Source: Xylographa opegraphella (lineage: Eukaryota). Taken from it: a stretch of 64,000 bases of DNA. A program made the translations under genes and the position numbers. The stretch is taken from NCBI GenBank assembly GCA_022813865.1, contig JALDZX010000083.1:1-64000 (forward strand). The letters run 5' to 3'. Below are positions 16,798-63,660 of the stretch, piece after piece; position 1 is the stretch's first letter; each line of letters begins with the position of its first letter. The notes below the pieces were generated by a model, which was not told where the DNA came from, ran no database searches, and worked only from the letters and a program-made list of their open reading frames with translations.

Positions 16798-17090
16798 GGT
16801 GATTAATGGTACCTGCTAGGGGAGTTGTGGGCAAAGATTCTTGATATAACAAGCGAAAAGTTACTAGTGCGGTATGACTCAGGTGGTGTTCCCCCACAGT
16901 TGACTCCGATTTTGGCTTCCGCCCGTCAATCAAATTTTTTTTGAGAGCGGCTAGCATGAAACACAATTATGACACCTGAGATACTTTGGTGAAAGGCAAT
17001 TGTAAGAACTCCAGATTTCATGCAACACCTAGATTCATATGATTGTACTTGTGTGAGACAAGTGGACCATGTGGAGAGCTTTGCCGTATC

Positions 17091-20000
17091 ATGAAGATCT
17101 TATGCAGCCCTAATACGTCGATCTATCGGCACAGATTCTACAAAAGCTCATTCACTGAAGCTGCAATAGCACGTGACAGGTTCTGTCCTCACTCTGTTAC
17201 CTCCGTATTGGCTGCCCAATATCATTCCAGCCTACGGGCAGTGGGGCGTCTTTCTATACCGAGCATTGGAAGCTCACAGCGCCTTATCCTCAGTCCCCAG
17301 CGGACTGTGCTTTCACGCGCTGCACACGGGAAGAAGCAATTCTCGAGTACCAGTTACGCAATGGCGGCTGAAAGAATAGATGGCACTGCCATTGCCAAAG
17401 CCATTCGAGAGAGGATCAATACCGACATTAAGGAAAAGCAAGCCAAAAATCCTCGCTACAGGCCATCGTTGACCATCGTGCAAGTCGGAGACAGATCCGA
17501 TTCCAGTACCTATGTCCGGATGAAGCTCAAAGCTGCAGAAGAAGCCAATATCAAATGTGACCTCATGCATTATCCCGAATCTATCACAGAGGCCGAGCTC
17601 CTCCAGCACATCATACGCTTCAACAACGACCCTTCAATACATGGCATCCTTGTGCAACTGCCTGTGCCCAATCATATTTCAGAGCACGCAATAACATCAG
17701 CAGTAGCGGATGAGAAGGATGTCGACGGATTTGGTGTTAGCAATATCGGCGAATTGGCTAAACGAGGAGGGAAGCCCCTATTTACGCCGTGCACTCCCAA
17801 AGGTGTCATGGTTTTGCTGCAAGAAAGTGGGGTGGATATCAGGGGAAAGAATGCTGTGGTCCTAGGTCGGAGTGACATCGTCGGAAGCCCTGTGAGCTAT
17901 CTGTTAAAAAACGCGGACGCTACGGTCACTGTCTGTCATTCAAGAACTCAAGGACTAGAAGATTATGTGAAGAGAGCAGATATCCTAATTGCAGCAATTG
18001 GAAAACCAAATTTTGTCAAGGGAGACTGGCTGAAGCCTGGAGCGGTAGTCATCGATGTAGGCACCAATTACGTTCCTGATGAATCTAAGAAATCGGGTCA
18101 AAAGCTTGTCGGAGATGTGGACTTTGAGTCCGCGATCGAAGTGGCCTCCAAGATCACTCCTGTTCCCGGAGGAGTTGGCCCGATGACAGTTGCCATGCTT
18201 CTACAAAACGTAGTAGATTCCGCGACAAGCTATTTTGAGCGGCAGAAAGCAAGACATATACGACCTCTACCGATCAAATTGAATAGTCCGGTCCCATCCG
18301 ATATTGCTATCTCACGCGCACAACGGCCTAAGCCAATCACGCAAATAGCAGAAGAGATTGGTATTTCACCTCACGAGCTTGAACCTTATGGTGCGTACAA
18401 AGCAAAAGTGGACCTGACATTGCTACAACGTTTGGGACATAGACGAAATGGACGCTATGTTCTCGTTGCTGGTATTACTCCTACTCCTCTTGGCGAAGGC
18501 AAATCGACGACAACTATGGGTCTCACACAAGCACTTGGTGCGCATCTCAATCGTATAGCTTTCGCCAACGTGAGACAGCCCAGTCAAGGACCTACCTTTG
18601 GCATCAAGGGGGGTGCGGCCGGCGGAGGGTATAGTCAAGTTATTCCCATGGACGAGTTCAACTTGCATTTGACTGGAGATATCCATGCTGTCACAGCGGC
18701 GAACAATCTGCTAGCTGCAGCTATCGAGACAAGGATGTTCCACGAAGCGACTCAGAAAGACGGACCCTTATACAAACGGCTAGTACCTACCAAAAAGGGG
18801 AAAAGGGAATTTCAGCCTATTATGTTTCGGCGATTAAAAAAGCTTGGTATCGAAAAGACAAATCCCGATGATTTGACAAAGGAAGAAATAACAAAATTCG
18901 CGAGGTTGGATATTGATCCCGATACAATAACATGGCGTCGGGTGCTTGATGTCAATGATCGGCATTTGAGAGGCATCACAGTAGGACAGGCTCCTACAGA
19001 GAAAGGGTCAAGTCGAGAGACTGGGTTTGATATCTCCGTTGCCAGTGAATGCATGGCAATTCTTGCTCTGAGCAATGACCTAGGAGATATGAGAGAACGT
19101 CTGGGCAGAATGGTCGTGGCAACATCGAGAAGCGGCGACCCTGTTACCAGCGATGACATTGGTGCCGGGGGTGCTCTCACAGCTTTGATGAAGGATGCGA
19201 TCAAACCGAACTTGATGCAGACACTCGAAGGCACGCCCGTTTTTGTACACGCAGGACCTTTTGCAAATATCAGTATTGGCGCGAGTTCAGTATTGGCAGA
19301 TAAAATGGCTTTGAAACTCGCAGGTACCGAATTGGACGAGAACCATGATGAAAAAACTGGTTTTGTAGTCACGGAAGCTGGCTTCGACTTTACTATGGGC
19401 GGCGAAAGATTCTTCAACATCAAGTGCCGCTCGTCAGGTTTGATTCCAGATGTTGTTGTCATAGTTGCAACAGTCCGCGCTTTGAAAGTCCACGGAGGTG
19501 GTCCCGAAATCACTCCAGGTGGAGCTCTTCATGAAGTTTACCGCACAGAGAATGTTAATATACTGAGGCGTGGATGCGTGAATCTCAAGAAACATATCTC
19601 TAATGCCAGATACTATGGCGTACCGGTCGTCGTGGCTATTAACAAAATGGAGACAGACACGGAGGCCGAGATCGCGGTCATTCGAGAAGAGTCATTAGCG
19701 GCCGGTGCAGATGACGCTATACCCGCCAATCATTGGGCAGAGGGCGGCAGAGGCGCGGTGGACCTTGCTAAAGGAGTCATCACCGCAAGCGCCAAAGATA
19801 AAGATTTCAAACTACTCTACGAGACGACTGGTAGCGTGCAAGACCGCATTGAACGTATTGGCAAAATCATGTATGGCGCCGACAAAGTAGAGTTCAGCGA
19901 GCTAGCTCAGAAAAAGGTCGATATGTACGAAAAGCAAGGGTTTGGGAACCTGCCTATCTGCATCGCTAAGACACAGTACTCACTCAGCCACGATCCTGCA

Positions 20001-20227
20001 TTGAAGGGTGCTCCAATTGGCTTCACTGTACCTATTCGGGATGTGAGGCTGGCTGTTGGAGCTGGGTATCTGTAAGTAAAGCTGGCTGAAAGGAAGAATT
20101 TTAACTAATGTAACCCAGGTATGCACTAGCCGCTGATATACAGACCATTCCTGGTTTACCTACAGCCCCTGGCTATCTGAACGTCGATGTTGACCCAGAG
20201 ACTGCAGAAATTGATGGGCTCTTCTGA
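17091..20227 (+). CDS. ADE3: C1-tetrahydrofolate synthase (dehydrogenase/cyclohydrolase/synthetase) with putative mitochondrial presequence; second ATG at 17361
   Basis: TPVPGGVGPMTV, ITPTPLGEGKSTT, GIKGGAAGGGYSQV, VHAGPFANI; intron 20072-20118; ends EIDGLF*. Confidence 0.97.
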
Positions 20228-20684
20228 TGCAAATATATCAACAGGAAAAATAGTTTCTAACGTCAACATGAAGCTTAACAGGTTCAATTGTCGATAGAAC
20301 TAGAGCTTGCCACTTACGCATATTCAACAATGGCGTTTGGCAGGAGAATTAGATACCACGAGGCGCACGATTTATTAGTATATCAAATTCAACTTCAAAA
20401 TTCAATCCAAGCTTTGTACAAATTTTAAAGTAGAGGTCAAGCTCTCCTTGTGACTCTTAAGACTCTGGCAGTATCCTTACTAGATCTGAATTGCCCTTGT
20501 TCGTTCGCATAGAGAGCTGTAAAGCCCTAAAGTGGGCTAGATGCCGAGGCTCGCGGAAATCACCCGAGCCCCGCTGTTGACACGGAGTTTTGGAGCTTTT
20601 CACAAACCAGAGCTCAGAGCACTATACGAAGAAAAGCCTGCGTCCCCTCAATCTTTTTAAAGACTGACCAGAAGTCAATTGGTA

Positions 20685-22111
20685 ATGAACGCCCTCTGGG
20701 CACCCTCTCCTTTTCGAGTAGGCTACTCGATCCCCCTCCGAAGAGCGGCCGCGATACGCCCCACCCCAATTTTGTCCACACGTTCAAGGCAATCGCATTC
20801 ACCGATCTACAGAAAAGCCATGTCTTCCACTCGCAAGATTAAGGTCAAAAACCCTGTTGTTGAGCTTGATGGCGACGAGATGACCCGAATAATATGGCAA
20901 GACATTAAAGACAAATTCATCCACCCGTACCTCGACATTGACTTGAAATACTATGATCTCGGCTTGCCATACCGGGATGAAACCAATGATCAGGTCACTC
21001 TCGATGCCGCAGCTGCGATAAAGAAGTACTCCGTCGGGGTCAAATGCGCGACTATCACGCCTGATGAGGCGAGGATGAAGGAGTTCAAGTTGAAAAAGAT
21101 GTGGCTAAGCCCTAATGGTACAATCCGAAACTACTTGGGTGGGACAGTCTTTAGGGAGTCAATCATTATCCCGCGGATACCCAGACTGGTGCCAGGTTGG
21201 AAGCAGCCGATTATTATCGGCAGACATGCTTTCGGAGATCAATACAGGGCGAAAGATCTGGTAGTGAAGGGGCCCGGCACATTGGAGATGGTTTACACGC
21301 CTAAAAGTGGAGAGCCAGAGCGGATCAAAGTCTATGAATTCGGGCAGGATGGAGGCGTGGCTCAAACGCAGTATAATACTGATGAGTCGATAAGTGGATT
21401 CGCTCATGCCAGTTTCAAGCTTGCATTGAGCAAGCCGTTGCCACTGTATATGAGTACTAAGAATACTATTCTGAAGAAATACGATGGGCGATTTAAGGAC
21501 ATATTTCAGGAGATATTTGAGAAAGAGTACGAGACACAGTTTAAGGAGAAAGGCATCTGGTATGAACACAGGTTGATTGACGACATGGTGGCTCAGATGA
21601 TGAAGAGTGCTGGTGGATACGTGATGGCACTGAAAAGTAATTCTTCGATACCGGACCATACCCACACGATGCTGACATAGCTCCAGACTATGATGGCGAT
21701 GTACTGTCCGACATCGTAGCCCAGGGCTTCGGTTCGCTCGGCCTCATGACCTCTGTCCTCATCACCCCTGATGGCAAGACTTACGAGTCCGAAGCCGCAC
21801 ATGGTACTGTGACACGGCATTTCCGCGAACATCAGAAAGGGAAAGAAACATCCACGAATCCAATAGCATCCATTTTTGCGTGGACAAGAGGTCTCGAGCG
21901 ACGAGGAGTGTTGGACGAAACACCGGAAGTGGTGGCTTTCGCGGAAAGCCTGGAACAGGCTTGTATTGATACTGTAAATGTGGATGGCGTTATGACAAAG
22001 GACCTGGCACTAGCGTGCGGGAAGACGGAGCGGAAGGATTACGCAACCACGAAAGAGTATATGGCTGCGGTCGAGAGGAGAATGCAGCAGAACCTGAAGG
22101 CGAAGCTATGA
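20685..22111 (+). CDS. IDP1: NADP-dependent isocitrate dehydrogenase; N-terminal presequence, second ATG at 20820, C-terminal PTS1 (AKL)
   Basis: [40 protein letters not shown]; intron 21637-21686. Confidence 0.97.
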
Positions 22112-22917: not shown

Positions 22918-23898
22918 TATAGTGGCTTTAATGGGGGCTCAGGGAGATGTGTTTAGTGGTATACGGAGATTATGTAAGTGAGCTGAGTTTTTCTGGTATT
23001 GTATACTTCTCGGAGAAAGTGGTGGAGGAATAGATATGAACAGATTACTATACTTCGTAATGCGGCTGATGGACTTTATTACACGTCGTTGAAGCCGCCG
23101 AGGATGAATCATAGGCTAGTATAGATAGGGCATAGACCGCCACCACCGCCGCTTGTTTCGCTGTTCTCGGCCAGGCACGGAATCTCTCGAGCCTCTCAAT
23201 CAATAATCCCAAGATTCTCTGGACACTTGGTTATCTCGAGAGAAGCGTGTGCATTGCGGGGATCACATTTCATGCTCAACAAAATGACTTTCTTTACTAC
23301 GAAGTCCAAACTGGGTTTTCTAGATGGAGCAAATAGCCCTTAATATTTCTCTAATCCTATTTATATCAATGAGTATGTCGTTCTGAAAACGACGAGCCTC
23401 TTATTATATATGCATCTCGTATGCCATAGCCAAGGGTGGCAAGTCCTAGCCGTACACCGTTTTGGTGAGCCTCGCCATTGTATCAATATTTTTTAGGCTG
23501 CAAGTACGGAGGTATCGGGCTCGTAAACTGCTCAGCTGCACTGAGAAGGCCGTACTAGATCGCGGGAGCGCTTGTAGTATGTGTCTACGGTAGGTGGGTC
23601 GGTGCAGTTAAGCGGAAAGAATGGGTTTAGACAGTATTGATGCTGTAAAGTATAGGCGCCCATAAGAAAGGAAGATTATCTTCTGAAGAAATGGCTGCAG
23701 TTTGTAGTTGTAGTTTGTAGGGCTTGTACCATGTTACTTGACTGTATATGGCTAGCGTATCTATAAGCAATGACGAGATATTGGATCTTGGCGTCTCCAT
23801 ATCAGTCTCGAGGTGGTCCTAGTAATCCATGGAAATTTTCAACGACATGGACTTCGTAGATCATACATCTGGTAGAGTAGACTTAACGTCCAAAGACG

Positions 23899-26046
23899 AT
23901 GTTCGACCCCGGCACTTCAGAGTACAGAAGCCTCCGATTTTGTAATGTCGATAATTGGATCTTAATCTGCTGCCTCACAGGTTGGGTATTCCGTGGCATT
24001 TTCAACAGAGAGGGATGTAAGCGAGATGGCCTGCTGCTTATAGGCGTGACAATCTTCTCTCAGTTCGGCGCATTGATTGAAGCTACAGCGTACTTGTCAA
24101 GTCCGATCGTCCCCTTCAGTGGAACATACTTCTTCGTAATAGTTCTGGCGCTCGCTATCGGGTTCCTGTTGGCCTACAGAAAAGCGCAACCCGGCGATGT
24201 GCAAATCAGCAATGAGCCAGAACGGACCGCATTGATCAATCCATTAAAACCTTTACTCTTTCCGTGCCGTACTGCTCACACTCGGCTGTTCCCAAAGAAA
24301 CACTCGTTCTCTTATTCGTACTTGCTCGTTGGCGTCCCAGTGGGATGGACCGGCTCTGTGGGATCAATGATTGCTGCGGACGCAGACATATCTATTGAAA
24401 CCGGTTCTACAAAGGCATGGTTCAGAGTGGAGGCTAGAGATCACCTTGACAGAGGTAATGCTAATCTCGGGTTGCACGGAAAACTTCGAGTCTATCTAGA
24501 GTCGCAGGTACGCTAGAGTCCATGGATCAGCATTGATAGACTCATACTTCAGTAGGGAGAGTCTATAGAACAATATCCGATTGCATACCTGGTCACAGCT
24601 CCAATGTTTCTAGGGTACGCTTTCAACCCAGTATCCTTCTGGTATCTTTATTCCAGTGAGATGCAGTTGAAAGCCATGGTCCTCGAAGTAAACAATACAT
24701 TTGATGAGAGACGGATGTATCTTTTGAAAGGTTCCAGTGACTCCGAAGCGGAGTTTTCGGCAGTCCAACAGCCCACAGCCGCTGAAGAGACAAGAATGAA
24801 GCCGCCTGGGCTGGAAAATACTGGCAGATTCACAGACGCTTGGGCAAAAGACTTCCATGTGTCCCCGTTTAGTTCTCGTAAGGGTTCCTATGCACTTTCA
24901 GCTTACGATCCATTCTTCCTATCTCAAAGTATGCCAAGGCCCATTAACAATACAATCACTCTCAGCTCGTCGAAAGACCACCCTAAGTTGGTCGCACGTA
25001 TCTTCTCCACCGGACCCGCTATCGAGCCGTCAGGGATTTCTTCGTGGTCCAAGCTTCGATTTATTGCTTCTTGGTGGTGGGTTGGTTTTGTGACATTTCC
25101 TCGGATTGTGAGGGAAGCGAGTAAGCTTTTCTTTCGGAGGAAGTTGCATATATGGTATAGACCCGAGGTCTTGAAGGATAGTATAGGAAGGACAGAAACC
25201 AAACGAGAGAAGTAAGTATCCGTGCTGATGCCCTCAACTCCTTGACTGACCATGCTCAGGACTATTGAAGATTGCTTCAGAAAGTTTCTCAAACAACAAG
25301 TCGAGCAGTCGAATGTGCAAATACCACTGAAGTACGTAGCTGCCGGGGTCGACTCGAAACGAGAAGAGATATTCTATCCAAAATCAATTACCACCGTATC
25401 CGAGAAGTTCGCACCAGATGGCCTCCAATTCAAAGTTCTGACTCCGCTCTTCTACTCCTCGGTAGCCCGTTTCGCCCGCATATCAGAGTTCATCTATTCT
25501 GAAGAACTTAGACACAACGACAAACAGCGTACCTTCTGGACATCGGACCCACAGAAGTTACTCGAAATTCTGGGCGAGAAGCAGATCCCGGATTCAGATC
25601 GAAGTAACCCACTTTCTAGTAACTGGATGAGTCAGATATATTGGGCCATACTGCGCCTTCTCCGCCGCTCGCCGCAGTATAGCGTCCCGGAAAGCGTCCT
25701 GCAAAGTACTCGGTCGCTGGATGATTCAGCCAACCACGATACCCGCTCTTTCAGGCTGTCGACTCTTGACCAATTCGTGCTTTTGAGTTGCAAGCACTCA
25801 CAGTCTGAGGAATATAGGACAGCCGTAAGCACACTCTTGCTGAGCGACTATGTTACCTTTGGCATTCCGGAGTTGATAGATGCTTTCGATTGGTGTATCA
25901 GGTCATTTCTCTGCTACGTCTCTGTTGATTTCATATCGAATTGGATGCGTACACTGTTCTCGCCATGTATCTTCATAACAGTGTCGGACGCTCTGGTGTC
26001 TTGTAACCTGTTACATTTCTGGTGGCTCGTCAAGAGTATGCTCTAG
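23899..26046 (+). CDS. DUF1365 family protein with fungal extensions
   Basis: HTRLFPKKHSFSYSY, FLGYAFNPVSFWYLY, LEVNNTFDER, KDFHVSPF; introns near 24508-24555 and 25212-25259; start uncertain. Confidence 0.85.
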
Positions 26047-26594
26047 CAGAACCCAAGACCATGTCCCATCATTGTTGGACACACTATCTGTATGGCCAGA
26101 GATTATGAAAGGCATACCAACCATGAGCAGATCTATTTGCCGCGTTTGCCTGGGTTGTACTGAAAAAATATGCTTTGCAGTGGTCCTATCGAGGATACAC
26201 AGTCTGTTAGCAACCCAGTCCCCGAAATCAACAATCAAACCAGGGGGCTTCAGAGATGGTACCAAAGTCATGCCAATGTGAACGGTTTGAGTGTCAAGCC
26301 TGACTACGAAGCACCGACCCAGCATTATATATCAACTGACCCCATGGTAGCTGATAGTTGTTAGCAGGAATTCAGTGCTGAAATCCAAGAATGACACTAG
26401 CTCTCAGCCAAACACTACAGAATAAGTGAAAGCGACTCTCATCACGTTTAGGGGCCATCCAATCAAATGTGCCACAAATTCCGCCCAAGAGCAGCAAAAG
26501 TTAAGACGCCCAGAGGCTCATTCTGCGAAACGTCGTCTGTCTATCCTGTACCAGAGTGGTTTGCTTGCAAAAAAGATCTCCTGTTTGTTGGATG

Positions 26595-26626
26595 AAAAAA
26601 TGTAAAAACATACCCGGAGGGGTATG
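26595..26626 (-). terminator. Perfect 7-bp hairpin followed by T5 and T6 tracts; putative Pol III terminator
   Basis: Minus strand CATACCC-CTCC-GGGTATG-TTTTT-ACA-TTTTTT; first run of 4 or more T downstream of the tRNA-like head. Confidence 0.6.
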
Positions 26627-26644
26627 AAACTCAGCCGGTGCTTG

Positions 26645-26752
26645 ATTTTTTTTTCCCGATGCTTTTTCACCGATCCCTTTTCTCCAACACCCTTTCCCCG
26701 ACCCCTTTTCCCCAACTCCTTTTACCCAATCCTTTTCCCAAAGCTTTTTCCA
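26645..26752. repeat. Degenerate 12-14-nt tandem array (~7-8 units, plus-strand consensus ~CCCRAYCCTTTT) with G-quadruplex motif on the minus strand
   Basis: Units cccgatgctttttc/accgatcccttttc/tccaacaccctttc/cccgacccctttt/ccccaactcctttt/acccaatcctttt/cccaaagctttttc; minus strand GGGG-AAAA-GGGG-TC-GGGG-AAA-GGG at 26690-26713. Confidence 0.85.
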
Positions 26753-26754
26753 TT

Positions 26755-26870
26755 TGTCCTCCCCGGGGCTCGAACCCGGTCCTCTAAGGTGGTAGCCCAG
26801 AATTATTCTGCTTCAGGGCACAAGCCGCCGAGACACCATCTCCCCTAACCATGTAGGCTAGGATCTGAAC
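26755..26870 (-). ncRNA. Non-canonical tRNA-like element (pseudo-tRNA or head of a Pol III ncRNA/SINE)
   Basis: Minus strand: A-box TAGCCTACATGG, perfect T arm CCGGG-TTCGAGC-CCCGG (B-box), acceptor stem GTTC(AGA)TCC/GGAGGAC with a 3-nt bulge, extended anticodon stem with an intron-like insert; anticodon not assignable. Confidence 0.7.
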
Positions 26871-27328
26871 TGATGAACAGCTATCTAGACCAAGCGCCAC
26901 CCTTCGATATTGGTGATTACTTTTAACAATATATATAGTTTCACAACGGTTACCCCTTTTTCCACAACGAAGGCCAATTTTCAGTACCTGCACACAACAC
27001 ACATAGAAGCATTGCACTTGCTGGTATAATCGAGCATCTATGTGAACTTGATCTTGATCACTTGGAGGGAGTTTTTCTTGTACAGTGCTTTCTCTAATTT
27101 CTCATACAGCGTGTCGGCAGCACATTACTACCTAATGGTTCTATGCATCCTCAAGTCGCACTGCTTTCGACAGGTTCCTTCGCTATCTATGCAGAAGCCA
27201 TAATAAGGTCTATGAATACCCCAAGGTTCATTCAGCACCCCTAACGCCATCGCTACCCAATGCTTTTTCCACTCCTTGCACAAGTATCGTGATCTCAAGC
27301 AACAACACAACCACACAACACCGTCGTA

Positions 27329-28924
27329 TCAGCTCTTCCTCTCCATCGCTTCTGCAATCCTCCTCTCCATTTCCTCCCTCCCTACCCTACTTGCACCCTT
27401 CACTGTCACGCCCTTCAACTTCCCAAGCTCTCTTACCCCAACCCAACCCGGCGCGATCTCCTCCGCTAGCAGCCCAACACAACGCACCGCCTCATTCTTA
27501 CTGATCGGGTTTCGCAACGACATTTGCAGATGCTGTATCACCGTGGGCATCGTGAACGAGGAAACTTTGCTTACACCCCCAACTTTCATCCCGTCGGTAC
27601 AATCCCCTCGACTCCCAGAGCTGGTTAAAATTTCGAGCACCGGTATGATCTCCTCGAGTCGCTGGAGAGCATTCCTGCGCGCTATGGACTCAGGAGATGG
27701 GCCGGCAGGCAGAGTCGACTGGTAGAGCTCTTTCGCATGGATGCGCTCGAGTAAGGAGGAGCTCCGGCTGCTGGGTGTTTTGGGTCTGGCTTGCGCTTTC
27801 TGTGGCATCAAGGCTGTGGGCTTTTGGTTGTTGAGCTGCGCTTTGATGGCACCTGCTTTGAGGTCTTCGAGTCGGCGCTGGCCTTTGGCGAGAAGAGGAA
27901 AGATCTTGAGCAAGGAGGTGCATGGTTGTATGGGTGCGCGATGCAGTTTGGCGAGGAAGGAGGGGATGTCGACGGATGCGTGGGTACTCCACAGGTAAGA
28001 CAGGTTCTGAATGAAGATGTTGTTCAGTTTCTCGACATCGATAGGCCGTCGGCGCTGTCCTTTTTCGAGAGAGGATTTTGACAGCTCGATACAAGTTTTA
28101 CCACCGCCAAAGTCGGAGAGCGCGAGCGGACATGCTGCGTCCGCGGGAGACCGGTCTCGAAGACTGTCGCTTGCAAGTATCCCCAACGTCACACAGATAT
28201 CGTCCGTCTCTATCCTCCTTTTTCCCCAGGCTCGCTCAATGATTGGTCGCAGGTTGCGCAGATCCACAGGGGAGAAGGACCCATTGTGCGCATAGTGTAA
28301 GGACAATGCTGTCAGGAAGGCCAAGTGTAGATCGATGAGATCTTGCAATTCGTTTGGTAGCTCAGAGGCACTGGACCGAAGAGGGCAAGGGGTTGTGGTT
28401 GATGTAGGGCGAGGGCTTTGGATCGAGGCAGGAGAGGTCGGAGGAGTAATATCTTGAGCGGGTAGGGGCGATGATGCACGTCTCGAGGGCGAGGAGGAGG
28501 AAAGTGCGAACGCTTCGAGGAAGGCACGGGCGCCTTTGGTCGGCGTTTCGGTGTTTTTGGGTCGGGGAAGTAGCGCCTTTCGGGGCTTGTGAGGGAGAGC
28601 AGGTAACGGCGGCTCAAAGTCCTGGGTAGCCAATGCTGCTGAGATGGTACTCTTGGTCTCGAGCACAGTAGCTATATTCTCCTTTGGTGGTGTTTCCAGG
28701 GTCTCCACCTTCCGCTTCCTAGAGTGTCCACCAAACTGCTCAGAGCACTCGACAAGAACCGCATCTTGCTTTACTGCTAGGTCTTTCGTGCCCGTCGAGA
28801 GGGTACTGGTTGATTTCGTTATCCTACCAAAAGCAGCGATTCCACCTTTGGCGGTTGGTCTTGCTGTAGTGCTCTTGCTGACAGCACTTGCAGCTACTTT
28901 ACGTTTCTTCAGAGCGGGAGGCAT
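27329..28924 (-). CDS. CDT1: DNA replication licensing factor Cdt1-like protein (Cdt1 C-terminal domain)
   Basis: LPNELQDLIDLH..FLTALSLHYAHNG, C-terminal SFTMPTVIQHLQMSLRNPISKNEA..LLAEEIAPGWV; S/T-P rich; upstream in-frame ATG also at 29005. Confidence 0.8.
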   Translation of the reverse strand: MPPALKKRKVAASAVSKSTTARPTAKGGIAAFGRITKSTSTLSTGTKDLAVKQDAVLVECSEQFGGHSRKRKVETLETPPKENIATVLETKSTISAALATQDFEPPLPALPHKPRKALLPRPKNTETPTKGARAFLEAFALSSSSPSRRASSPLPAQDITPPTSPASIQSPRPTSTTTPCPLRSSASELPNELQDLIDLHLAFLTALSLHYAHNGSFSPVDLRNLRPIIERAWGKRRIETDDICVTLGILASDSLRDRSPADAACPLALSDFGGGKTCIELSKSSLEKGQRRRPIDVEKLNNIFIQNLSYLWSTHASVDIPSFLAKLHRAPIQPCTSLLKIFPLLAKGQRRLEDLKAGAIKAQLNNQKPTALMPQKAQARPKTPSSRSSSLLERIHAKELYQSTLPAGPSPESIARRNALQRLEEIIPVLEILTSSGSRGDCTDGMKVGGVSKVSSFTMPTVIQHLQMSLRNPISKNEAVRCVGLLAEEIAPGWVGVRELGKLKGVTVKGASRVGREEMERRIAEAMERKS

Positions 28925-36854: not shown

Positions 36855-37024
36855 TGTGCAAAAGGCTTGCATTCTCTTGGCGCTCAAACTTTGCTCTCCC
36901 CCACCCAAAAATGCACNNNNNNNNNNNNNNNNNNNNNNNNNNNNNNNNNNNNNNNNNNNNNNNNNNATTTTTGGGTGGGGGAGAGCAAAGTTTGAGCGCC
37001 AAGAGAATGCAAGCCTTTTGCACA
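36855..37024. repeat. Perfect 58-bp inverted repeat (36855-36912 / 36967-37024) flanking an assembly gap; possible transposon/MITE terminal inverted repeats
   Basis: TGTGCAAAAGGCTTGC...CACCCAAAAAT and its exact reverse complement on either side of the N run (36917-36966). Confidence 0.85.
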
Positions 37025-37604: not shown

Positions 37605-39428
37605 TCAATGTAGACATCCACCTGGACTCTTCAAACACCACTCCATCTGTACCATCCCCGCCCCCACTCCCCTTGCCACCAGTCTCTCCCTCATCTCCGC
37701 CAATCGCCCAGTCACACCCTCCCCAATCGTCCCCTTGCCCCTCCACATCACCTCCGCCGCAGCCGCCACTCTCGGCCACAGCATGCCATCCAATCCCACA
37801 CCATCCGTCAGCTCTCCCCACAGATGCACCTCGCCCCCAATCACCAGATGTCTATCCTCTTTGGGGATGCCCTCAAAAGGATCATAATCGTACACAAGCC
37901 GCCAATTCTTGTATGGGGGACACCAATCTGCATACGGGGCCTTGGTTCCCACGTCGTCGACATTTGAGGGGTAAGGGTCCATCCATGTGCCGAGCCCACA
38001 GTCCAGATACCAGTGGGTGCTTGGCCCGAAAAGAGCACGATGACCACGGGCGACAACAGCGGCGAGGGAGGCGGGCTTCCGCCATGTCTGGACAATAGTA
38101 GAAGGTGGGAGGGTTATGTTCCAGTCCAGAAGGATTTCCTCCCAGGCGAGAGGCGTGAGGGAGTGAATAGATACGAGAGCGAAGACATTGTCGTAGAAAG
38201 CCTGTAAGAGAGGCTGTAACACGGCTTTGGAGGAGGAGTTGACGGTGGGATCGAGAGCATAGGAATTGGTGTTGAGCTCGTCTCCGCCGAGGTGGAAGTG
38301 CGGAGAGTAAGGCGCAATACGAGGAAAGAGGTCGGAAAGAATTTTTGTAAGGAAATGGGTGACAGCGGATGAGTTGAGCTTGAGTTGCCCGGATGGAGGC
38401 TCGGCGGCGTAGGACTCCCATGGCTGTATGTTGTAGGCTGTTATGAGTTCAGGATAGGAGTGGTGGATCGAGGCTGTGTGACCTGGCATATCGATCTCGA
38501 GGTAGACTTCGATACCAACAGATTTTCCATATTCTTGGACATCGCGGAGGTCGTCAGTACTCCAGATTTGTCTTTTGTGGTAAGCACCCTTCTCGGCTAA
38601 ATCTGGGAGGGCTGGTATCTCGAGGGGCCAGGATTGGGAATCTGTGGCATGGAGATGGAGACGATTGAGCTTGCTAAAGCTCATGGCGTCGAGGCTGCGT
38701 TTGACATCTTTCGTGGAGATTCTGTTGCGGGCTATATCTAGGTTAAGGCCTCTGTGCTCGAAGACGGGACGATCCTCGATAATGACGGGAGCATATGGTG
38801 TATACATATTAGCTTCACTTTCGGTATGAGCATAGAAGAGCTGTGCGAAGGTGTTCAGAGCGTGCAGTCCGCCTTGAATAGAAGTACTTTTGATCATGGC
38901 ACTTCCATCCTCGCGCAAATCTAGAGAGTATGCTTCCGTTGATGCATTGCTCTGCGGCTTTGCATCACTTGATACGTGGTAAGCTTCGATGGTGATTGAT
39001 TGTATGAAAGTTCTTGCGCTATCCATACTCGGCTCAAAATCGATATTTCTTTCGTGAAACTTGAAGGGTACAAAATGCTCGGCGAACAGTGTGTTCTTCA
39101 TACGTTCAAAGGCAGTTTCGAGAATTGCTTCCTGTTGTTTCTGAGACTCACTGAGCGGTCTCGTGACCCAAGCAGAAGTGTGAACCGGGTTTCGTGAGAC
39201 GTAATTGACAGCCAATTGTAACATAGTAATCAATCTTGTCCCAAAACGCTGTTGATCATGCCACAACTCCGCAAATCGGGGCTTTTCCACTGGTGTGTGT
39301 TTGAAAACAAGTCGGGCATCTCGAGATAGCCACACGGTGGACGATCCAGCCTCGAATAATTCCGGAAGAGGCCATATAGCTGTAGCTGGGGCAAAAAACA
39401 ATGAAATGGCAAAGAGAAAAGGAAGCAT
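37605..39428 (-). CDS. Secreted beta-N-acetylhexosaminidase (GH20)
   Basis: Signal peptide then IWPLP; HRGLNLDIAR, HATDSQSWP, EIDMPGH, catalytic HLGGDE, WYLDCG, LWPRVAAAAE. Confidence 0.96.
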   Translation of the reverse strand: MLPFLFAISLFFAPATAIWPLPELFEAGSSTVWLSRDARLVFKHTPVEKPRFAELWHDQQRFGTRLITMLQLAVNYVSRNPVHTSAWVTRPLSESQKQQEAILETAFERMKNTLFAEHFVPFKFHERNIDFEPSMDSARTFIQSITIEAYHVSSDAKPQSNASTEAYSLDLREDGSAMIKSTSIQGGLHALNTFAQLFYAHTESEANMYTPYAPVIIEDRPVFEHRGLNLDIARNRISTKDVKRSLDAMSFSKLNRLHLHATDSQSWPLEIPALPDLAEKGAYHKRQIWSTDDLRDVQEYGKSVGIEVYLEIDMPGHTASIHHSYPELITAYNIQPWESYAAEPPSGQLKLNSSAVTHFLTKILSDLFPRIAPYSPHFHLGGDELNTNSYALDPTVNSSSKAVLQPLLQAFYDNVFALVSIHSLTPLAWEEILLDWNITLPPSTIVQTWRKPASLAAVVARGHRALFGPSTHWYLDCGLGTWMDPYPSNVDDVGTKAPYADWCPPYKNWRLVYDYDPFEGIPKEDRHLVIGGEVHLWGELTDGVGLDGMLWPRVAAAAEVMWRGKGTIGEGVTGRLAEMRERLVARGVGAGMVQMEWCLKSPGGCLH

Positions 39429-39882
39429 CCTGGATGCCTAGACACGGGATACCGCAAAAGATGAACAATACAGGAATCGTGAGAAAAGCCCAGAAACTAT
39501 CTAGTCATTGGGAAAACGAACAGTCACACTATCGTGGGTCCAAAGTACATGAATGACAACACTTATCGTTAATCAATGCGTGAAAATAAGCGTAGGCATC
39601 GGCAGGTGCTTGCACAGGTCAGTGGTCCAATGAGAATTCAAAGCTGGTCGTTGTATTCCACCGACGTGCATCTACGAAATATCCAGATGCTCACTTTCCG
39701 CCTCGAGCTGCGGCCCATGATATACTGGCCAGTCACGTACTTTATAGTCCGGGACATTGGCGTTAAGGGGCGGGGCACAAACTGGACTTCTTCCTTCCAA
39801 TGACCTTCTACTTCTCACGTCAGTGATTCGAGCTGCAGCTCCTTGAGAGTGCAGCTGCTCAATAGTCTCTCCATATGGCATC

Positions 39883-45440: not shown

Positions 45441-47546
45441 TCACGTCACGAGAACCTCGCGAAAACGCTTATGGCGAAAACGCTTATGGCGAAAACGCTT
45501 AGGGCGAGAAGCAGGCTTGGTGTGCAAGTCGATCCCCACATGTATCGCATGCTGGATCTTCCACGTCGTCGGTTTTTGCAAAATGTCCTGGTTATGCCAG
45601 CTCCTGTCGAGTACCAATGCTTCCGCGAATAGGTCGATGAAGTTGCCGGCCAGCTTGTAGCGTCTCATTGCGCCCAGGTCTCGAGCTATCATCTGCTTTG
45701 CCAGACTCAGCGACCGCTCGCGATCTTCTCCGGTGAAGGAATATTGGCTCAGTAGCTCCTTTATTCGCCATCCCGGGTCCGACTTTTCTGAATTTGGGCT
45801 TGAGCGAATATCGATCCCGACAATAACCTTTCCAGCCGTTTTGAAAAGGCGCTCCGTGGCTGTCCGGGGGTGTTCGGGAGTATTGCGTACCAAGCTATGG
45901 AGAACAAGTTTCTGCATTCGATAACTTACGGCAGCTTCCAAACAGGCCACCCGCCAGGTTACCCTGCAACAGTTGATGAGTTTTGACCGCCATGCGAGCA
46001 TAAACAGGCCGTCGTATTCACCCTGGCCTGGAGACACGTTATATTGAGATTTGAATAGCCGAAGCAACTCGATGGCGCGTTGTGGTTGTCTCAGGCTGCG
46101 GCAATACCCAAGGAGAATGTGTAGAGTTACATTGTTTGGTTGACATCCACGATCGACCATCACTCGAAGCACTATGACCGCCTGAGAACCCAATCCGTTT
46201 TTCCCAAGGATATAGCACATCTGGTTGCCTGATCGAATAGAAATCCAGTCAGTCCCATAGCGCGAGTCCATCAGTGAAACAAATGATTCGAGATCTTTAC
46301 CACCAGCAAGGTGATCAGAAAGCTCAACCTCAACGATCTGTCTCACAACAGACCGGAGCATTGCAGCATCTTTCAACATTCCAGCTTCCCTCATAAATCT
46401 TACAACCAGCAGCTGTGCGCGCCTGTCCTTGATGGCTTTGAGAAAGACAACCCATGTGTGCCCATTCGGTGACACTCCTCTACGAGTCATGACTTTTAAT
46501 AAATACGTGAAGCTGTGGAGGTCATTCCTCGTAGCTGCACCACGAAGCATGACATTGAATGTCTCTGTCGAAATGATAACCTGCGTATCATCCATGATGT
46601 TGAACAACTTGCGAGCACTTGAGATGTTGCTATTCTTGTAACAGAAGCTCAAGGCGATATTGAATGCTTCAGTGGTCATGTAAGGTCTTAAAGACTCATC
46701 CTCGAAGAGTAGCATAATCGCTGTGTGTACTGCATCTGTATGTGTAGTTTGTTTCCTATACAAATGCCTGTGCATCAAACGTGAGACCTTGGATTGAGCC
46801 AATTTCTTTACGTGAACCGTAAAAGTGGAGCTAGACCATATCTTTGGGCGCGGTATATCCTGTGCACGAATTGGACAGTTTTTTGAGGGGTCCGTAGATA
46901 TGTTATAGATAACCAACGGAGGTTTGGTAATAGTCGTACCATGAGTTTCATAGTGCTGCTTAAGCTCAAGGAAAGCGAGCCGCCAATCGTACGACCAGGA
47001 TCCAGTATATTTGGTGATGGCAGTCCTAAATTCTTGTATGGCTTCTTTCCTATTTGTGTTTGACTCTATCTTCCGGATATTCGAAGGTTGCAGCATAAAG
47101 CTGTTATGAAAAGACTTTCCACGTGGAGCTGACAGAGCCTCTTCCAGAGTCTTGAAGCCGCCAACATGACGCTCCTTCTCGACTACGCTTGCTACCGGTA
47201 GCGTCCCATAGGTCTTGGAAACAGATATATCGGACTTATCACCAGTAGTACTCTCTTGTAAAGGAATCGTTGTTGATAATGTCCTTAGCGTGCTATCGTG
47301 TAGCCTCGACCCACCCTGAGCTTCTTTGACATCTTGTACTTGCAGTGGTGTTGCCTGAGTCGCTGTGTCCTCCACACGCAACAGGCCTGTCGAGAGGTGT
47401 GCAGTCTGTAAGCAAAAGAGGGCTCTAGCAGCTTGCCCCACAGAGAAACATAGGAACAAACGACGAGAGGTGTCCCTGGGAGTCGCAAGGAGATAGGTAG
47501 TAGCCAGTGATAAGCTCCTGTAGTGTACTCGACGTCCCAGGGACAT
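45441..47546 (-). CDS. Pentatricopeptide-repeat protein, probably mitochondrial
   Basis: PPR motifs EAFNIALSFC, ETFNVMLRGAA..MTRRGVSPNGHTW, MVDRGCQPNNVTLHILL; Arg-rich N-terminus. Confidence 0.88.
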   Translation of the reverse strand: MSLGRRVHYRSLSLATTYLLATPRDTSRRLFLCFSVGQAARALFCLQTAHLSTGLLRVEDTATQATPLQVQDVKEAQGGSRLHDSTLRTLSTTIPLQESTTGDKSDISVSKTYGTLPVASVVEKERHVGGFKTLEEALSAPRGKSFHNSFMLQPSNIRKIESNTNRKEAIQEFRTAITKYTGSWSYDWRLAFLELKQHYETHGTTITKPPLVIYNISTDPSKNCPIRAQDIPRPKIWSSSTFTVHVKKLAQSKVSRLMHRHLYRKQTTHTDAVHTAIMLLFEDESLRPYMTTEAFNIALSFCYKNSNISSARKLFNIMDDTQVIISTETFNVMLRGAATRNDLHSFTYLLKVMTRRGVSPNGHTWVVFLKAIKDRRAQLLVVRFMREAGMLKDAAMLRSVVRQIVEVELSDHLAGGKDLESFVSLMDSRYGTDWISIRSGNQMCYILGKNGLGSQAVIVLRVMVDRGCQPNNVTLHILLGYCRSLRQPQRAIELLRLFKSQYNVSPGQGEYDGLFMLAWRSKLINCCRVTWRVACLEAAVSYRMQKLVLHSLVRNTPEHPRTATERLFKTAGKVIVGIDIRSSPNSEKSDPGWRIKELLSQYSFTGEDRERSLSLAKQMIARDLGAMRRYKLAGNFIDLFAEALVLDRSWHNQDILQKPTTWKIQHAIHVGIDLHTKPASRPKRFRHKRFRHKRFREVLVT
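45459..45501. repeat. 15-bp tandem repeat GCGAAAACGCTTATG x~3 encoding KRFRH repeats at the PPR C-terminus
   Basis: Directly visible. Confidence 0.9.
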
Positions 47547-47863
47547 GTGCTACGTCAATTGCATCCTGGAGTTGAGCATAAGGAAGATGGTTATTTGGTT
47601 TGGGGAGAAACAGAATTTCGTGTTTGCGGTCAGCCCTACGGCACGGTCGGTCTTCCCGAGGACGATCTTTCCCTGCAACGGTTACGTTAGGCTTCTCGAG
47701 CACGCGTTGCTGGAATTCACCACCTATGATAGCTTCAGAACACAGCAGTCACCGCACAAAGAGATAGTGACTAGACAGTCGGGCATACTCAGCCAGAATT
47801 CGGGTCCCAACTGCTGCTCCTTTGATATCATAGGCTGCAACCTTACCCAGCTCATTTTCCAAA

Positions 47864-52363: not shown

Positions 52364-55300
52364 ATGGCATACAATCGACTAGGTATGTTCTCTAATGCTC
52401 AAATCTCCTTCCACGTATCGATAATGTTTCCTTGCGCGTGAGGACTATCATTCACGCTGTGTACTTTACCTACAATAAGGGACAGTTCACGACTGACACA
52501 TTCTCTCTCCAGGTCACCCGGATTATCAGGGTGAAGAAGATGAATTCGCATCACCCACGATGCATCCCCACACAGGTCGAACACCTTCTCCTGGACAACC
52601 CCTGGCAGGTTACCAGCTAGAAGATGGCCCTTACAGACCACAACAAGCACCCCTACAAATACCTATGGGACCGCCAGGACACATGGCTTCGAGCGACAGG
52701 CTTGCAGCGCAACCCACATACTCCGTTGAAAATATCAACAACTCATATGGACACAACCAGGCCTACAATCAACAAATTTACAACATGCCGGGAACGCAAT
52801 ACAACTATCCTCCTACCGACTATGCGATCTCTCCTGAAGACCACCACGACGCCTACTACCAACGGCCCTACCAACCCTCTCCACTGAATGACCCCGAAGC
52901 AGATCCATATGCACCGCATGAGCAACAGCAGCCATACTATGACGAGAATGACCATGTCCCTATCCTGGGGCCTGAGAATCCCTATGGCCCAGATCCTCAA
53001 ACACCTGGGGAATATGATGGACAGTACGAAGCTCCCCATCCAATCCCCACCCCAAACCCGAAACCATTAAGGAGGTGGAAGACTGTCAAGGAGGTACAAC
53101 TATTCAACGGAAACTTGGTTCTTGATTGCCCAATTCCCCCAAAGCTTTTGAACCAAGTTCCTCACGCCATGCCTCCAGACAGAGATGAGTTCACCCATAT
53201 GCGCTATTCTGCTGCGACTTGCGATCCATCAGAGTTCTACGATGATCGATTTACTTTGCGCCAGAGGCTTTTCGCGAAACCGAGGCATACGGAGCTTTTC
53301 ATTGTCGTAACAATGTATAACGAGGACGAATTCTTGTTCGCGCGTACGATGATCGGTGTCTTCAAGAATATTGAGCACATGTGTTCGAGGACGAACAGTA
53401 AAACCTGGGGCAAGGAGGCGTGGAAGAAAATTGTGGTCTGCGTTGTTAGCGACGGGCGTGCCAAAATCAATCCAAGAACGAGAGCTGTGATAGCAGGTCT
53501 GGGTGTCTATCAGGATGGTATTGCTAAGCAGCAAGTCAACGGGAAAGACGTCACTGCACACATCTACGAGTACACCACTCAAGTAGGGATGGAGCTGAAG
53601 GGCAAAATGGTCCACTTGAAACCGAAGGGTGCTACTCCGGTGCAGATGATTTTCTGTCTCAAAGAGAAAAATCAAAAGAAGATCAATTCACATCGCTGGT
53701 TCTTCCAGGCATTCGGGCGAGTATTGGATCCGAACATTTGTGTGCTCATCGACGCTGGTACGAAGCCTGGGAAGGACTCCATATATCATCTCTGGAAAGC
53801 ATTCGATCTAGAACCCATGTGTGGAGGTGCTTGTGGGGAAATCAAGGTGATGTTGTCTGCTGGAAGAAAACTCATCAATCCATTAGTTGCGACACAGAAT
53901 TTTGAGTATAAAATGAGTAACATTCTTGACAAACCTTTGGAATCTGCTTTTGGATTTATCTCCGTGCTACCCGGTGCTTTCTCCGCATATCGCTACGTGG
54001 CTTTGCAAAACGACAAAACAGGTCAAGGACCATTGGAGAAGTACTTTGCCGGGGAGAAGCTGCATGGTGCTAATGCTGGAATTTTCACTGCAAATATGTA
54101 CCTTGCCGAGGATCGGATTCTCTGTTTTGAACTAGTGTCGAAAAGAAATTGCCGTTGGATATTACAATATGTAAAATCCTCGACCGGAGAGACTGATGTT
54201 CCAGACACAATGACGGAATTTATTCTGCAGCGACGAAGATGGTTGAACGGCAGTTTCTTTGCCGCTGTATATGCTATAGCGCACTTTTATCAGATCGGGC
54301 GAAGCGACCATAGTTTCGGGAGGAAATTGATGCTCTTCATCGAGTTCACATACCAGACCATCAATATGATTTTTGCATGGTTTGCTGTTGTAAGTATCAC
54401 TTGTTTCGAGCTGTACCGCTTTTCTGACCTCCCTAGGGCAATTTCTTTCTCGTATTCCATATATTGACGCAATCCCTCGGAGACTCAGATCTACTCGGAA
54501 CCGCTGGAACTATTCTGGGTGTCATTTTCGAATGGCTATACCTTGCTACGCTCATGACTTGTTTTGTGCTCGCACTTGGTAACCGGCCACAAGGTTCCAA
54601 CAAGTTTTATATGTCCATGGTCTATTTCTGGGTCATCATCATGATCTACCTTATCTTCGCCTCCATTTTTATCACCGTCAAATCCATTCAGATCCAACTC
54701 GCTGAGAAATCGTTCAGCATCAACGAATTATTTACCAATTCGCTGTTCTCAACTCTGATAGTATCACTTGCCTCTACTTATGTCCTCTGGTTTGTCGCTT
54801 CTATTTTGTTCTTCGATCCATGGCATATGTTCCACTCCGTAAGTCTACTTTTGCAAAACCGAGACTGTTATACAGACTGACTCATTCGTGTAGTTCATCC
54901 AATATCTGCTGCTGACACCTACATATATCAACATTCTCAATGTGTACGCTTTCTGCAATACTCATGACATAACATGGGGTACCAAAGGAGATGATAAAGC
55001 AGAGAAATTGCCATCTGCAAACCTCAAGCCCGGTGGAAAAGTTGAGGTCAACATACCGCAGGACGACGGCGACTTGAATGATCAGTACGATGCGGAAATG
55101 AAGATGATATCAGTCAAGGCACCGAAGGAGACGAAGAGTATATCCGCCTCCGAAAAGCAAGAGGATTATTACAAGGGTTTCAGGAGTGCGGTTGTGCTAG
55201 TGTGGATGTTCTCCAACCTCGCTCTCTCGGCAGTAGTGCTGAGTACAGCGGGCACGGGCGGAACTTATGTTGGCGTCAGCGACCCGAACGCCACGGCGAG

Positions 55301-62200: not shown

Positions 62201-63524
62201 ACTTGGTCTCACCAAAAGCAGATCCTGCGTCATTCGTCTCATTTCTAGAAATTTTCTTGTCAACAGCGTCTGAGAGGTCGGCTGGCTTAAGAGGGCTGGT
62301 AGGTGGTGTCTCGTGATCCATCACGCCTTCAACATCAGACACTGGTGTGGAACTGGCCGCTACTGAGGAATTATGCGATTTTGCAGCATCTGTCGAAGGA
62401 CGCTTAATAGGTCGGAAGTTGAATTTGGCTAGAAGACTCTCCTTGGTCACCTTCTTTTTTGTCTTGGCCTGATGTGCAAGCTGCATATTACGACTCATAC
62501 GCTGTGTCTCCCTGTTCATTTCTTCGAGCGCTTTCTTGCTAGCTTTGCGGGTCGGCCTGGTTTGTTGGGTGAGCTTGTCCTCCGTAGCACTATCATCCTC
62601 AATGTCGTCGTCTGATAAAACTCCAGCTATACTAGCACGGTTTTTCGCTTTCAATTGCCTCTCGGCACTCTTCTGTTCCTCGGCTGCAACTTTAGCTTGA
62701 CGCTCTGCCCGCTTCTTTGCAACCAGTGCAAGAAATCGATTGTTTGCTTGAAGATCGCGAGGAGAGTCCGGGTGTGACTCAGGAGAGCTTCTTGCTACTT
62801 TTGAGCCCGATGAAGCGGCGGCTGGTTCGGGAGTCAGAAACAAGCCAGGAGAAGAAACATGTGTTCTAGGCGGGGTAGCTGGCTTTTGTCTTTCGGATGT
62901 AGGTGACCGGCTTGGAGATGAGCCGTGAAGTGGTGTAGATATTCGCGAGGAACGGCTGATCTTTGGTCCTGTCACTACCGGTCGTTTCTTGCGAGTCAAG
63001 AACTTTCTTGTCAATTTCATTTCCTGCTCGATGTTCGGACTGCCTTCGTGATTCAATGCTTCCGTGTTTTCAGCCGTATTATCTGTGTCCCCAAGTAATT
63101 GCTGGCGAATCCTATCATAAGCATTTGTCGGAGTATCGGAAGCATTCTCCAAGGCTGAAGCTTCATGATCGTGACCAATGTTCCCAACAAGCCGAGCAGC
63201 CAATCTTCCCTGAGGACGTATAACATCGCTATCCTCGTCATCGTCATATCGACTCCCTCTGTCGCCGTGATTTGATTGTCCAAATGGATCTCCTGCCCTT
63301 CCGCTGCCACTTCCATCTTCTCCTACTCTGTCAACGGTGGGAAATATGCTTGTATTTGTACGGGGCGTATCTTCTTCAGAGTCATCGTCAAGTGTAGCTA
63401 GTAAAGCCTTTACTCTGCTTCCCAGTGTGATTTGATCGTATATTGTAGATTCATCGTGATTTGACTGAGTGGAAGCTGCTACAGAGGCGTTTCCCGGCGA
63501 AGATAGCGATCTCTGGCTTGACAT
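59270..63524 (-). CDS. MRC1: Replication checkpoint mediator Mrc1 (claspin-like)
   Basis: RKASKKALEEMNRETQRMSRNMQLAHQA, many SQ/TQ sites, MVEEQAEESEDEYAGLGGASDD, KLAFLRAIED; one intron near 60279-60331. Confidence 0.92.
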
Positions 63525-63570
63525 CGTTACGGTCGCGGACGCAATGCTGGATCCTAAGTCGATGAAGAAC

Positions 63571-63660
63571 ACCGCGTTAGAAGTTATTGCAGCGTTCTCA
63601 ACCTCGCGAACGCGGTTGTGGAAGTCCGGGTAGTCTGTGGGAGACGCGACCCAGACGCGT
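63571..63660. promoter_or_regulatory. Cluster of MCB/MCB-like elements upstream of MRC1
   Basis: ACGCGT 63655-63660, ACGCGA 63644-63649, further CGCG cores near 63573 and 63605-63614. Confidence 0.65.

Follow-up and report, generated by a model that had tools for sequence, protein, structure and literature searches.

The 305-nt unit at positions 26595..26899, on the minus strand of the window (the whole stretch of 64,000 nt analysed here), belongs to a small dispersed family, with at least two full copies and one tail-only copy. Judged from the sequence, the family is best read as a low-copy, tRNA-related family of Pol III RNAs, which may be SINE-like or may be a BC1-like family of ncRNA genes. 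The reading we favour, to which we give a probability of roughly 0.4, is a family of SINE-like Pol III retroposons whose source RNA is under selection. The SINE-like and BC1-like readings are compatible with each other. BC1 itself is a cellular RNA gene and a source of retrocopies at once.

The evidence supports a unit of three modules, namely a folded tRNA-like head, a repeat body, and a tail consisting of a hairpin and oligo-T. The first-pass annotation had proposed a modular RNA of about 265 nt at what it tacitly treated as a single locus, built from a tRNA mimic, a repeat body and a 3' hairpin. The modular build stands, and it recurs on other contigs. The length and the single locus do not: likeness to the other copies gives a unit of ~305 nt (26899-26595), of which the annotated 3' end at 26595 was exact and the 5' end lies ~29 nt further out, at ~26899. 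The SINE reading, which had been mentioned in passing, is now foremost because the element belongs to a small dispersed family.

The unit occupies a 1.28-kb gap between two convergent genes. On one side, on the plus strand, is a DUF1365 gene with Pfam hits in 23890-25215, whose last long open frame has no Pfam match and stops at 26046. On the other, on the minus strand, is CDT1 (27332-28924, stop codon 27329-27331), which carries a CDT1_C domain and is assigned to Ascomycota by the protein atlas. The unit and CDT1 share a strand, with 430 nt between the CDT1 stop codon and the unit. The 64-kb window is otherwise gene-rich and housekeeping in character, and no reverse transcriptase or transposase was found among the 15 long ORFs scanned in it. 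A coding ORF through the repeat (26501-26812) was considered and rejected, as it has no usable start.

Copies were sought by aligning the contigs of X1, the one public DNA run found to contain this stretch, to positions 25600-27800 at a likeness of at least 80%. This run comprises 98,362 contigs and 30.6 million letters, and is probably the source of the window DNA. Three of the 98,362 contigs match: one holds the locus itself (record 1), one a tail-only copy (record 2) and one a full-length copy (record 3, here called copy 2). Copy 2 lies on a 34.6-kb contig and matches 26896-26721, with 30 substituted letters and 5 gap letters, and 26651-26621, with 2 differences in 31 nt. Inspection by eye extends it at both ends: three letters at 26899-26897 (TGG) are also common to it after a 1-nt indel, and its loose end before 26621 continues across the hairpin, whose loop is longer here, and across both T runs. 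The tail-only copy, on a 64-kb contig, matches 26651-26595 with 4 differences in 57 nt. Compared with the window copy, copy 2 is ~80% alike in the head and ~93% in the tail. On each contig the flanks are unlike outside the match limits, which give loose ends at 26896, 26651, 26621 and 26595. Head and tail thus recur together on another contig, and the tacit view of a single locus gives way to a small dispersed family.

Wider searches added no further members. Inside the 64-kb window nothing was found beyond chance 11-16-mers. Two further runs of the same study from other organisms, X2 and X3, gave 0 contigs on 25600-27800 at 80%, a result that is uninformative on absence. Metagenomes scanned with two conserved motifs combined in a DNA pattern yielded 0 matches; when they were scanned for the CDT1 protein, there were 254 pattern matches, with no relative among them. 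Four characteristic motif strings of the element had no occurrence in a literature text search.

The limits of likeness are clear at both ends. The 3' limit is 26595, the last T of a T6 run, as defined by the tail-only copy, and the 5' limit is at ~26899, about 7 nt ahead of an A-box-like motif. The repeated unit, as delimited by alignment to the two other contigs, therefore coincides in its limits with the predicted Pol III transcription unit of 305 nt. Because it starts and ends where the predicted transcript would, the copies can be read as having been made from RNA. That the unit coincides with the predicted transcript speaks for either retroposition or, in a gene family, selection on the transcribed part alone.

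The features listed for the element in the first-pass annotation were all found on the minus strand, by sequence inspection and by script. The clearest of them is the T arm, CCGGG-TTCGAGC-CCCGG, at 26779-26763, which contains the B box GGTTCGAGCCC at 26777-26767; both were checked by script. The strict B box GGTTCGANNCC has a single exact match on both strands of the 64-kb window, at 26777-26767, and copy 2 has zero differences from the window copy in the B box and T-loop. A more permissive T-arm pattern is close to chance, with 5 occurrences in the window against 2.0 expected.

The A box is less exact. The motif originally proposed, TAGCCTACATGG at 26860-26849 (motif 2, recognised by sequence inspection), shows two differences in copy 2, at 26852 and 26851, both at N positions of the consensus. 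Near the 5' end, inspection adds a further A-box-like motif, TGGTCTAGATAG (motif 1), which starts 7 nt into the unit and spans 26893-26882. Each candidate has one mismatch to the consensus (TRGYNNARNNGG for motif 1). Of the A and B boxes claimed earlier, the B box is exact and the A box is a candidate. Motif 1 is 116 nt and motif 2 is 83 nt ahead of the B box, the usual spacing of A box to B box being 30-60 nt. Further upstream, ~30-38 nt ahead of the first base of the unit, the sequence TATATATAT at 26937-26929 on the minus strand is a possible TFIIIB/TBP site. Upstream TATA elements serve Pol III genes in some fungi. In the known upstream flank of copy 2, which is 30 nt long, no TATATATAT-like element is visible. 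SINEBase regards A and B boxes as merely an indication (PMC3531059).

The rest of the head contains three further helices on the minus strand. H1 is a 7-bp hairpin, CCUAGCC-UACAU-GGUUAGG, at 26862-26844, and is present in both the minimum free energy (MFE) and the centroid folds. H2 is a long stem at 26787..26841, originally described as an anticodon stem, and encloses two small hairpins; its strands GATGGTG/TACCACC at 26840-34 and 26794-88 contain one A.C mismatch and are separated by a 39-nt insert. H3, at 26810-26798, is the hairpin CAGAA-UAA-UUCUG and is found in the MFE fold. The fold as a whole is no more stable than that of shuffled sequences (z 0.50 for the 305 nt and 0.09 for the head). 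In the window copy, the architecture that combines H1, H2, H3 and the T arm is 2.6 kcal/mol above the MFE, and in copy 2 the MFE fold has all four formed. A panhandle between the 5' end and the tail (26899-91 with 26644-36) was also considered, at -12.9 kcal/mol against -8.8 +/- 2.5, and was dropped as not significant, 6% of shuffled tails reaching it.

The body is a purine-rich tandem repeat of 12-14 nt (28 nt), identified by TRF at 26752-26650 on the minus strand. It differs greatly between the copies: in copy 2, 66 letters replace the 69 letters at 26652-26720, and these are not alignable at 80%. Inside the body of the window copy, a regular expression search finds a canonical G-quadruplex motif on the minus strand, with four G3-4 tracts and loops of 2-4 nt (26690..26713). 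Motifs of this kind number 4 on the plus and 7 on the minus strand across the 64-kb window.

The tail, at 26651-26595 on the minus strand, is conserved and shared by the other copies. It consists of an A-run, a unique stretch, a hairpin, T5, ACA and T6. The hairpin CAUACCC-CUCC-GGGUAUG (7 bp, 26626-26609) stands directly ahead of T5 (26608-26604), and T6 follows at 26600-26595; both T runs are candidate terminators. The repeats and the 7-bp hairpin directly before T5/T6 of the original description are thus confirmed, TRF giving about 100 nt of repeats where ~110 nt had been described. According to the script, T5 and T6 are the only runs of four or more T in the unit; the absence of other T4 runs is unremarkable, since 1051 of 2550 window pieces of 290 nt have none at all. 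In copy 2, as judged by eye, a 6-bp hairpin stem and both T runs are kept and the loop has been swapped for a longer one. The ACA ahead of T6 in the window copy is GCA in copy 2.

We propose that TFIIIC would bind the B box in the T arm together with an A box, and that TFIIIC, with the upstream TATA-like element, would position TFIIIB, with a Pol III start near 26899-26907. The polymerase would transcribe the folded head and the purine-rich repeat and would stop at T5/T6 past the terminal hairpin, to give an oligo-U-ended RNA of ~295-305 nt. Copies would be produced via this RNA as non-autonomous, low-copy, SINE-like retroposons, the source RNA being selected for its fold. The conserved 3' hairpin tail would be a likely handle for reverse transcriptase, or might protect the 3' end, and the repeat body would act as a tolerant spacer.

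Selection for a fold was assessed by comparing the window copy with copy 2. Four helices, with 25 pairs, were fixed from the window copy alone, the T arm and H2 being taken from the first-pass annotation and H1 and H3 from the MFE fold. The sequence of copy 2 was rebuilt by script from a difference table, which locates 22 of the 30 head substitutions and 4 insertions; the other 8 substitutions are within ~32 nt of the ends of the matching piece, and all 6 tail differences are likewise unlocated. The test is therefore one of two full copies and of substitutions only. Indels, among them two insertions at the base of H2, were left out, and the null model places substitutions at random without mutational bias.

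Eight of the 22 located substitutions fall on paired bases. They nevertheless break only 1 of the 25 pairs in copy 2, and two pairs carry compensatory double changes. One of these is in the T stem, where the C-G pair 26778/26764 of the window copy is U-A in copy 2, and the other is the closing pair of H3 (26806/26802), which changes from A-U to C-G. Single changes convert G.U to G-C in H1 (26858/26848), A.C to A-U in H2 (26839/26789) and G-C to G.U in H2 (26837/26791). The G.U pair 26834/26794 of H2 is lost in the fixed alignment, where an adjacent inserted C can restore G-C. The remaining two changes of copy 2 in H1 are both in the loop, and two loop bases of H3 are also altered. In 100,000 random placements, one broken pair or fewer was seen 126 times (P = 0.0013), and one broken pair or fewer together with two or more double changes 24 times (joint P = 0.00024). 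For the two copies together, RNAalifold gives an energy of -33.0, compared to -19.6 +/- 3.7 for random mutants, of which 1 in 1000 reaches it. The first-pass annotation had named covarying base pairs as worth looking for, and the double changes in the T stem and in H3 are such pairs. G.U pairs in H1 and H2, together with the T runs, suit the minus strand only.

The substitution pattern bears on how the copies diverged. Repeat-induced point mutation (RIP) leaves a sweep of C-to-T mutations; because the 22 located substitutions comprise 10 transitions and 12 transversions, the divergence is not a sweep of this type. One might still suppose that the element is a silent DNA repeat, an old tRNA-derived relic beside a microsatellite that was duplicated at the DNA level, with a helix pattern that is a leftover or due to chance. 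The folding energy, which is not above that of shuffles, the unremarkable lack of internal T4 runs, and the acceptor and D arms, which are unlike those of tRNA, all agree with this idea, as does the fact that two copies were compared. It is nevertheless unlikely. One broken pair with two double changes has a joint P of ~0.0002 under random placement; a divergence of ~20% has spared the B box, the critical positions of A-box motif 2, the hairpin stem and both T runs; and the unit has sharp limits with unrelated flanks at three places. A decayed tRNA beside low-complexity DNA, which the first-pass annotation had set against its own proposal, is not borne out, as head and tail recur and the helices are preserved. 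With at least two full copies and the RNA folds kept, the sequence suggests that a small Pol III gene or a SINE-like retroposon is more likely than a decayed tRNA.

Conservation of helices requires selection at the RNA level, and this does not have to involve Pol III. The element could accordingly be a structured cis element of Pol II transcripts, located in a long CDT1 3' UTR or in read-through from CDT1, in which case the T runs and the A- and B-box likeness would be incidental and the copies might lie behind other genes. It shares the CDT1 strand (stop at 27329-27331) and has no match to tRNA models, both of which fit. We regard this as quite improbable, however, because the limits of likeness are an A-box-like start and a T-run end, which are not features of an mRNA, and because the B box is invariant and is the sole strict match in 64 kb. 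The distance of 430 nt to the stop codon would also be long for a fungal 3' UTR of typical length.

The first-pass conclusion that the head does not fit a normal tRNA is confirmed, and it extends to an intron-containing one. ARAGORN at default stringency, with and without introns, gave 0 genes in the window, and Rfam gave 0 gathering-level hits in the 64-kb window. With Rfam at E values up to 10, searches of 901 nt and of 161 nt gave noise only and no tRNA hit, the T arm being echoed solely by that of mascRNA (12.3 bits, E 5.8, in 161 nt). A 5-bp stem and a TΨC-type 7-nt loop like those of a tRNA are present in this arm; neither ARAGORN nor Rfam recognises a cloverleaf. The acceptor stem with a 3-nt bulge described in the first pass is one of several equally poor pairings and finds no support. 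In the same searches, Rfam echoes of sR44 at 26941-26988 (E 7.1) and of mir-1803, p27_CRE, FTX_1 and snoZ6 (E 2.8-7.8) were judged to be noise.

A missed, ordinary intron-containing tRNA gene is accordingly close to refuted. Its attraction lies in the perfect T arm, in the possibility that the long stem is an anticodon stem extended by intron pairing, and in the 'tRNA-Phe' (26754-26976, with an intron of 126 nt) that ARAGORN proposes when relaxed. Relaxed ARAGORN, however, produces 5 such calls in the window at 90% stringency and 139 at 80%, so this call is noise; at default stringency, with introns allowed, it finds 0 genes, and Rfam, with E values up to 10 admitted, reports no tRNA in 161 nt. 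An acceptor stem of 7 bp is lacking, and H1 is a hairpin of 7 bp with a 5-nt loop and not a D arm. Either register of the would-be anticodon loop lacks U33 or lacks purine 37, and the would-be anticodon is unlike between the two copies. In comparison with tRNA and mascRNA (RF00005, RF01684), the unit has in common the T arm, with a 5-bp G/C stem and a UUCGAGC loop, and differs in that the acceptor stem, D arm and anticodon loop are absent and the score is far below gathering.

Several other element classes were also considered. A MITE was rejected for want of terminal inverted repeats. An H/ACA snoRNA was rejected because the ACA ahead of T6 reads GCA in copy 2 and is preceded by T5. A solo LTR or PBS/PPT, a Helitron end, a C/D snoRNA and SRP RNA were dropped on sequence inspection.

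The SINE-like reading can be set against the properties of described SINEs. With a length of 305 nt (<1 kb) and a presence on three contigs with unlike flanks, the unit has the size and dispersal of a SINE, and a tail-only copy is what would be expected from 5' truncation in reverse transcription; copies that look 5'-truncated are found for tRNA-derived SINEs (SINE2) as they are in this family. Alternatively, the tail-only copy might represent the end of a partner LINE. A precedent comes from another ascomycete, Aspergillus fumigatus, where low-copy, tRNA-related SINE candidates with internal short repeats are described (PMC5063351). As presented there, AfuSINE2 is also short, interspersed and made of three modules, with a 5' part resembling A and B boxes, a body that has short tandem repeats and no known origin, and a low copy number in its ascomycete host; one AfuSINE2 entry (Table 1 of PMC5063351) has a purine-rich repeat of ~12 nt, as does the unit. 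When compared by eye with the 13 AfuSINE sequences printed in PMC5063351, the unit shows no sequence likeness to them.

The unit also departs from tRNA-derived SINEs in several ways. For the window copy, a target-site duplication was looked for in ~50-nt flanks, which have in common neither an identical 6-mer nor, with 1 mismatch allowed, an 8-mer, a duplication of 4-5 bp being below the resolution of the comparison. Where such SINEs have an A-rich or simple-repeat tail, the unit has a hairpin and a T5/T6 terminator; its own simple repeats lie inside it, there is no measurable tRNA likeness past the T arm, and the copies differ by ~20% yet keep their helices. The copy number, at 3 places with at least 80% likeness in the X1 contigs, is below the SINEBase criterion: SINEBase asks for at least 100 copies, and for 60% likeness to tRNA over 60 nt (PMC3531059). 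No covariance-model match to tRNA, 5S or SRP RNA was found in Rfam, and the window holds no tRNA for direct comparison; because of the missing tRNA match, descent of the unit from a tRNA would be conjectural. The unit is thus outside every Rfam family and, as far as tested, outside the formal definition of SINEBase.

One point against a SINE-like retroposon is that dead retrocopies should lose their helices, while each copy here has at most one mismatch in 25 pairs. Retention of the helices at ~20% divergence suits functional paralogues at least as well as it suits dead retrocopies. It is consequently possible, if somewhat doubtful, that the unit belongs to a family of cellular Pol III ncRNA genes resembling BC1, with at least two paralogous genes kept by selection. 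Its 5' domain would then carry the promoter, and the purine spacer may form a G-quadruplex or bind proteins. On this view it is the work of the RNA within the cell, and not any mobility, that would explain why the copies are conserved. Such a family would account for ~20% divergence of the head with at most one mismatch per copy in 25 pairs and two compensatory double changes. It would also account for flanks that are fully diverged around a transcribed part that is kept, as in tRNA gene families. A target-site duplication and a retroposon-type tail are absent, the surroundings are gene-rich and housekeeping, a TATA-like element lies ~30 nt upstream of the start, and the body contains a G4 motif; all of these are in keeping with a gene. 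The tail is better kept (2/31 and 4/57 differences) than the head (35/181), although we estimate, with no formal calculation, that this difference is not significant, the sites being few. The length of the body is likewise kept (66 vs 69 nt) despite its unalignable sequence, but a body that cannot be aligned is more in character for a spacer or microsatellite than for a functional core. The presence of a tail-only copy and the absence of an Rfam match also weigh against a gene family.

BC1 and the ID elements of rodents, and BC200 of primates, provide a close parallel. They have a promoter-bearing, tRNA- or SINE-like 5' domain, a purine- or A-rich centre, a unique 3' part and oligo-U. The unit, known here from its DNA sequence, resembles BC1 and BC200 in layout only: it is unrelated in sequence and host (a fungus as against mammals), it has a G/A-rich tandem repeat of 12-14 nt at its centre where they have an A-run, and it is about twice the length of BC1. 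We suggest only tentatively that it represents a cellular Pol III RNA, not described before, from a filamentous ascomycete, with a promoter-doubling head, a spacer that is G-quadruplex-capable and kept in length, and a 3' hairpin with oligo-U. Such an RNA would be a fungal counterpart of BC1/BC200 and possibly a source of retrocopies. A different comparison is with the yeast genes RPR1 and SNR52, where a non-tRNA 5' leader bears A and B boxes that drive transcription of the RNA behind it as far as a T run. That leader is removed, and the RNA behind it is RNase P RNA in the one case and a C/D snoRNA in the other. In the unit, by contrast, the downstream part is a repeat and a hairpin with no Rfam match, and the conserved helices are in the head.

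To our knowledge, well-supported Pol III elements of filamentous fungi are scarce beyond the tRNA, 5S, U6, SRP and RNase P RNAs. The curated list of SINEBase, as summarised in its abstract, names no fungal family (PMC3531059). The unit provides a concrete and testable candidate, with clear limits, promoter parts that are kept, and paralogue divergence that preserves its helices. Should it prove silent, it would be a warning that a perfect B box and a T run are insufficient by themselves, and that the comparison of paralogues carries the case. As a retroposon, it would exemplify one that closes with its own terminator and has no tail of the usual sort; as a cellular RNA, it would represent a new class of fungal ncRNA.

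The stretch in which the unit lies is a gene-rich, housekeeping region. Among the genes identified are those for C1-tetrahydrofolate synthase (17043-20072), an Iso_dh-family dehydrogenase of the isocitrate/isopropylmalate type (20661-21677), a GH20 hexosaminidase (37608-39437), a PPR protein (45444-47549), chitin synthase (52497-54464) and MRC1 (59273-63734). None of the 15 ORFs scanned in the window encodes a transposon protein, and neither tRNA genes nor Rfam families at gathering level were found anywhere in the 64 kb. The window also contains one assembly gap, a run of 50 N at 36917-36966.

With the 305-nt tRNA-like unit subtracted, what is left of the gap between the convergent genes DUF1365 and CDT1 (26047-26594 and 26900-27328) still amounts to nearly 1 kb, a length that seems great by ascomycete standards. 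No further element was recognised in these two parts apart from an echo of sR44 at 26941-26988, which at E 7.1 in the Rfam search is at chance level.

The purine-rich tandem repeat that forms the body of the unit is crossed by a stop-free frame of 103 codons (26501-26812, minus strand). The predicted peptide is of low complexity and rich in G, K and E, its sole Met being at about residue 68, past the repeat; the frame was judged non-coding, there being no usable start codon. The same repeat body carries a canonical G-quadruplex motif (26690-26713, minus strand), with four G3-4 tracts and loops of 2-4 nt. Motifs of this kind occur four times on the plus strand and seven times on the minus strand of the whole window.

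Upstream of the unit, approximately 30-38 nt 5' of its first base, is the sequence TATATATAT (26929-26937, minus strand). In fission yeast, upstream TATA elements are in use at Pol III genes; if this fungus employs them likewise, TATATATAT could possibly serve as a TBP/TFIIIB site.
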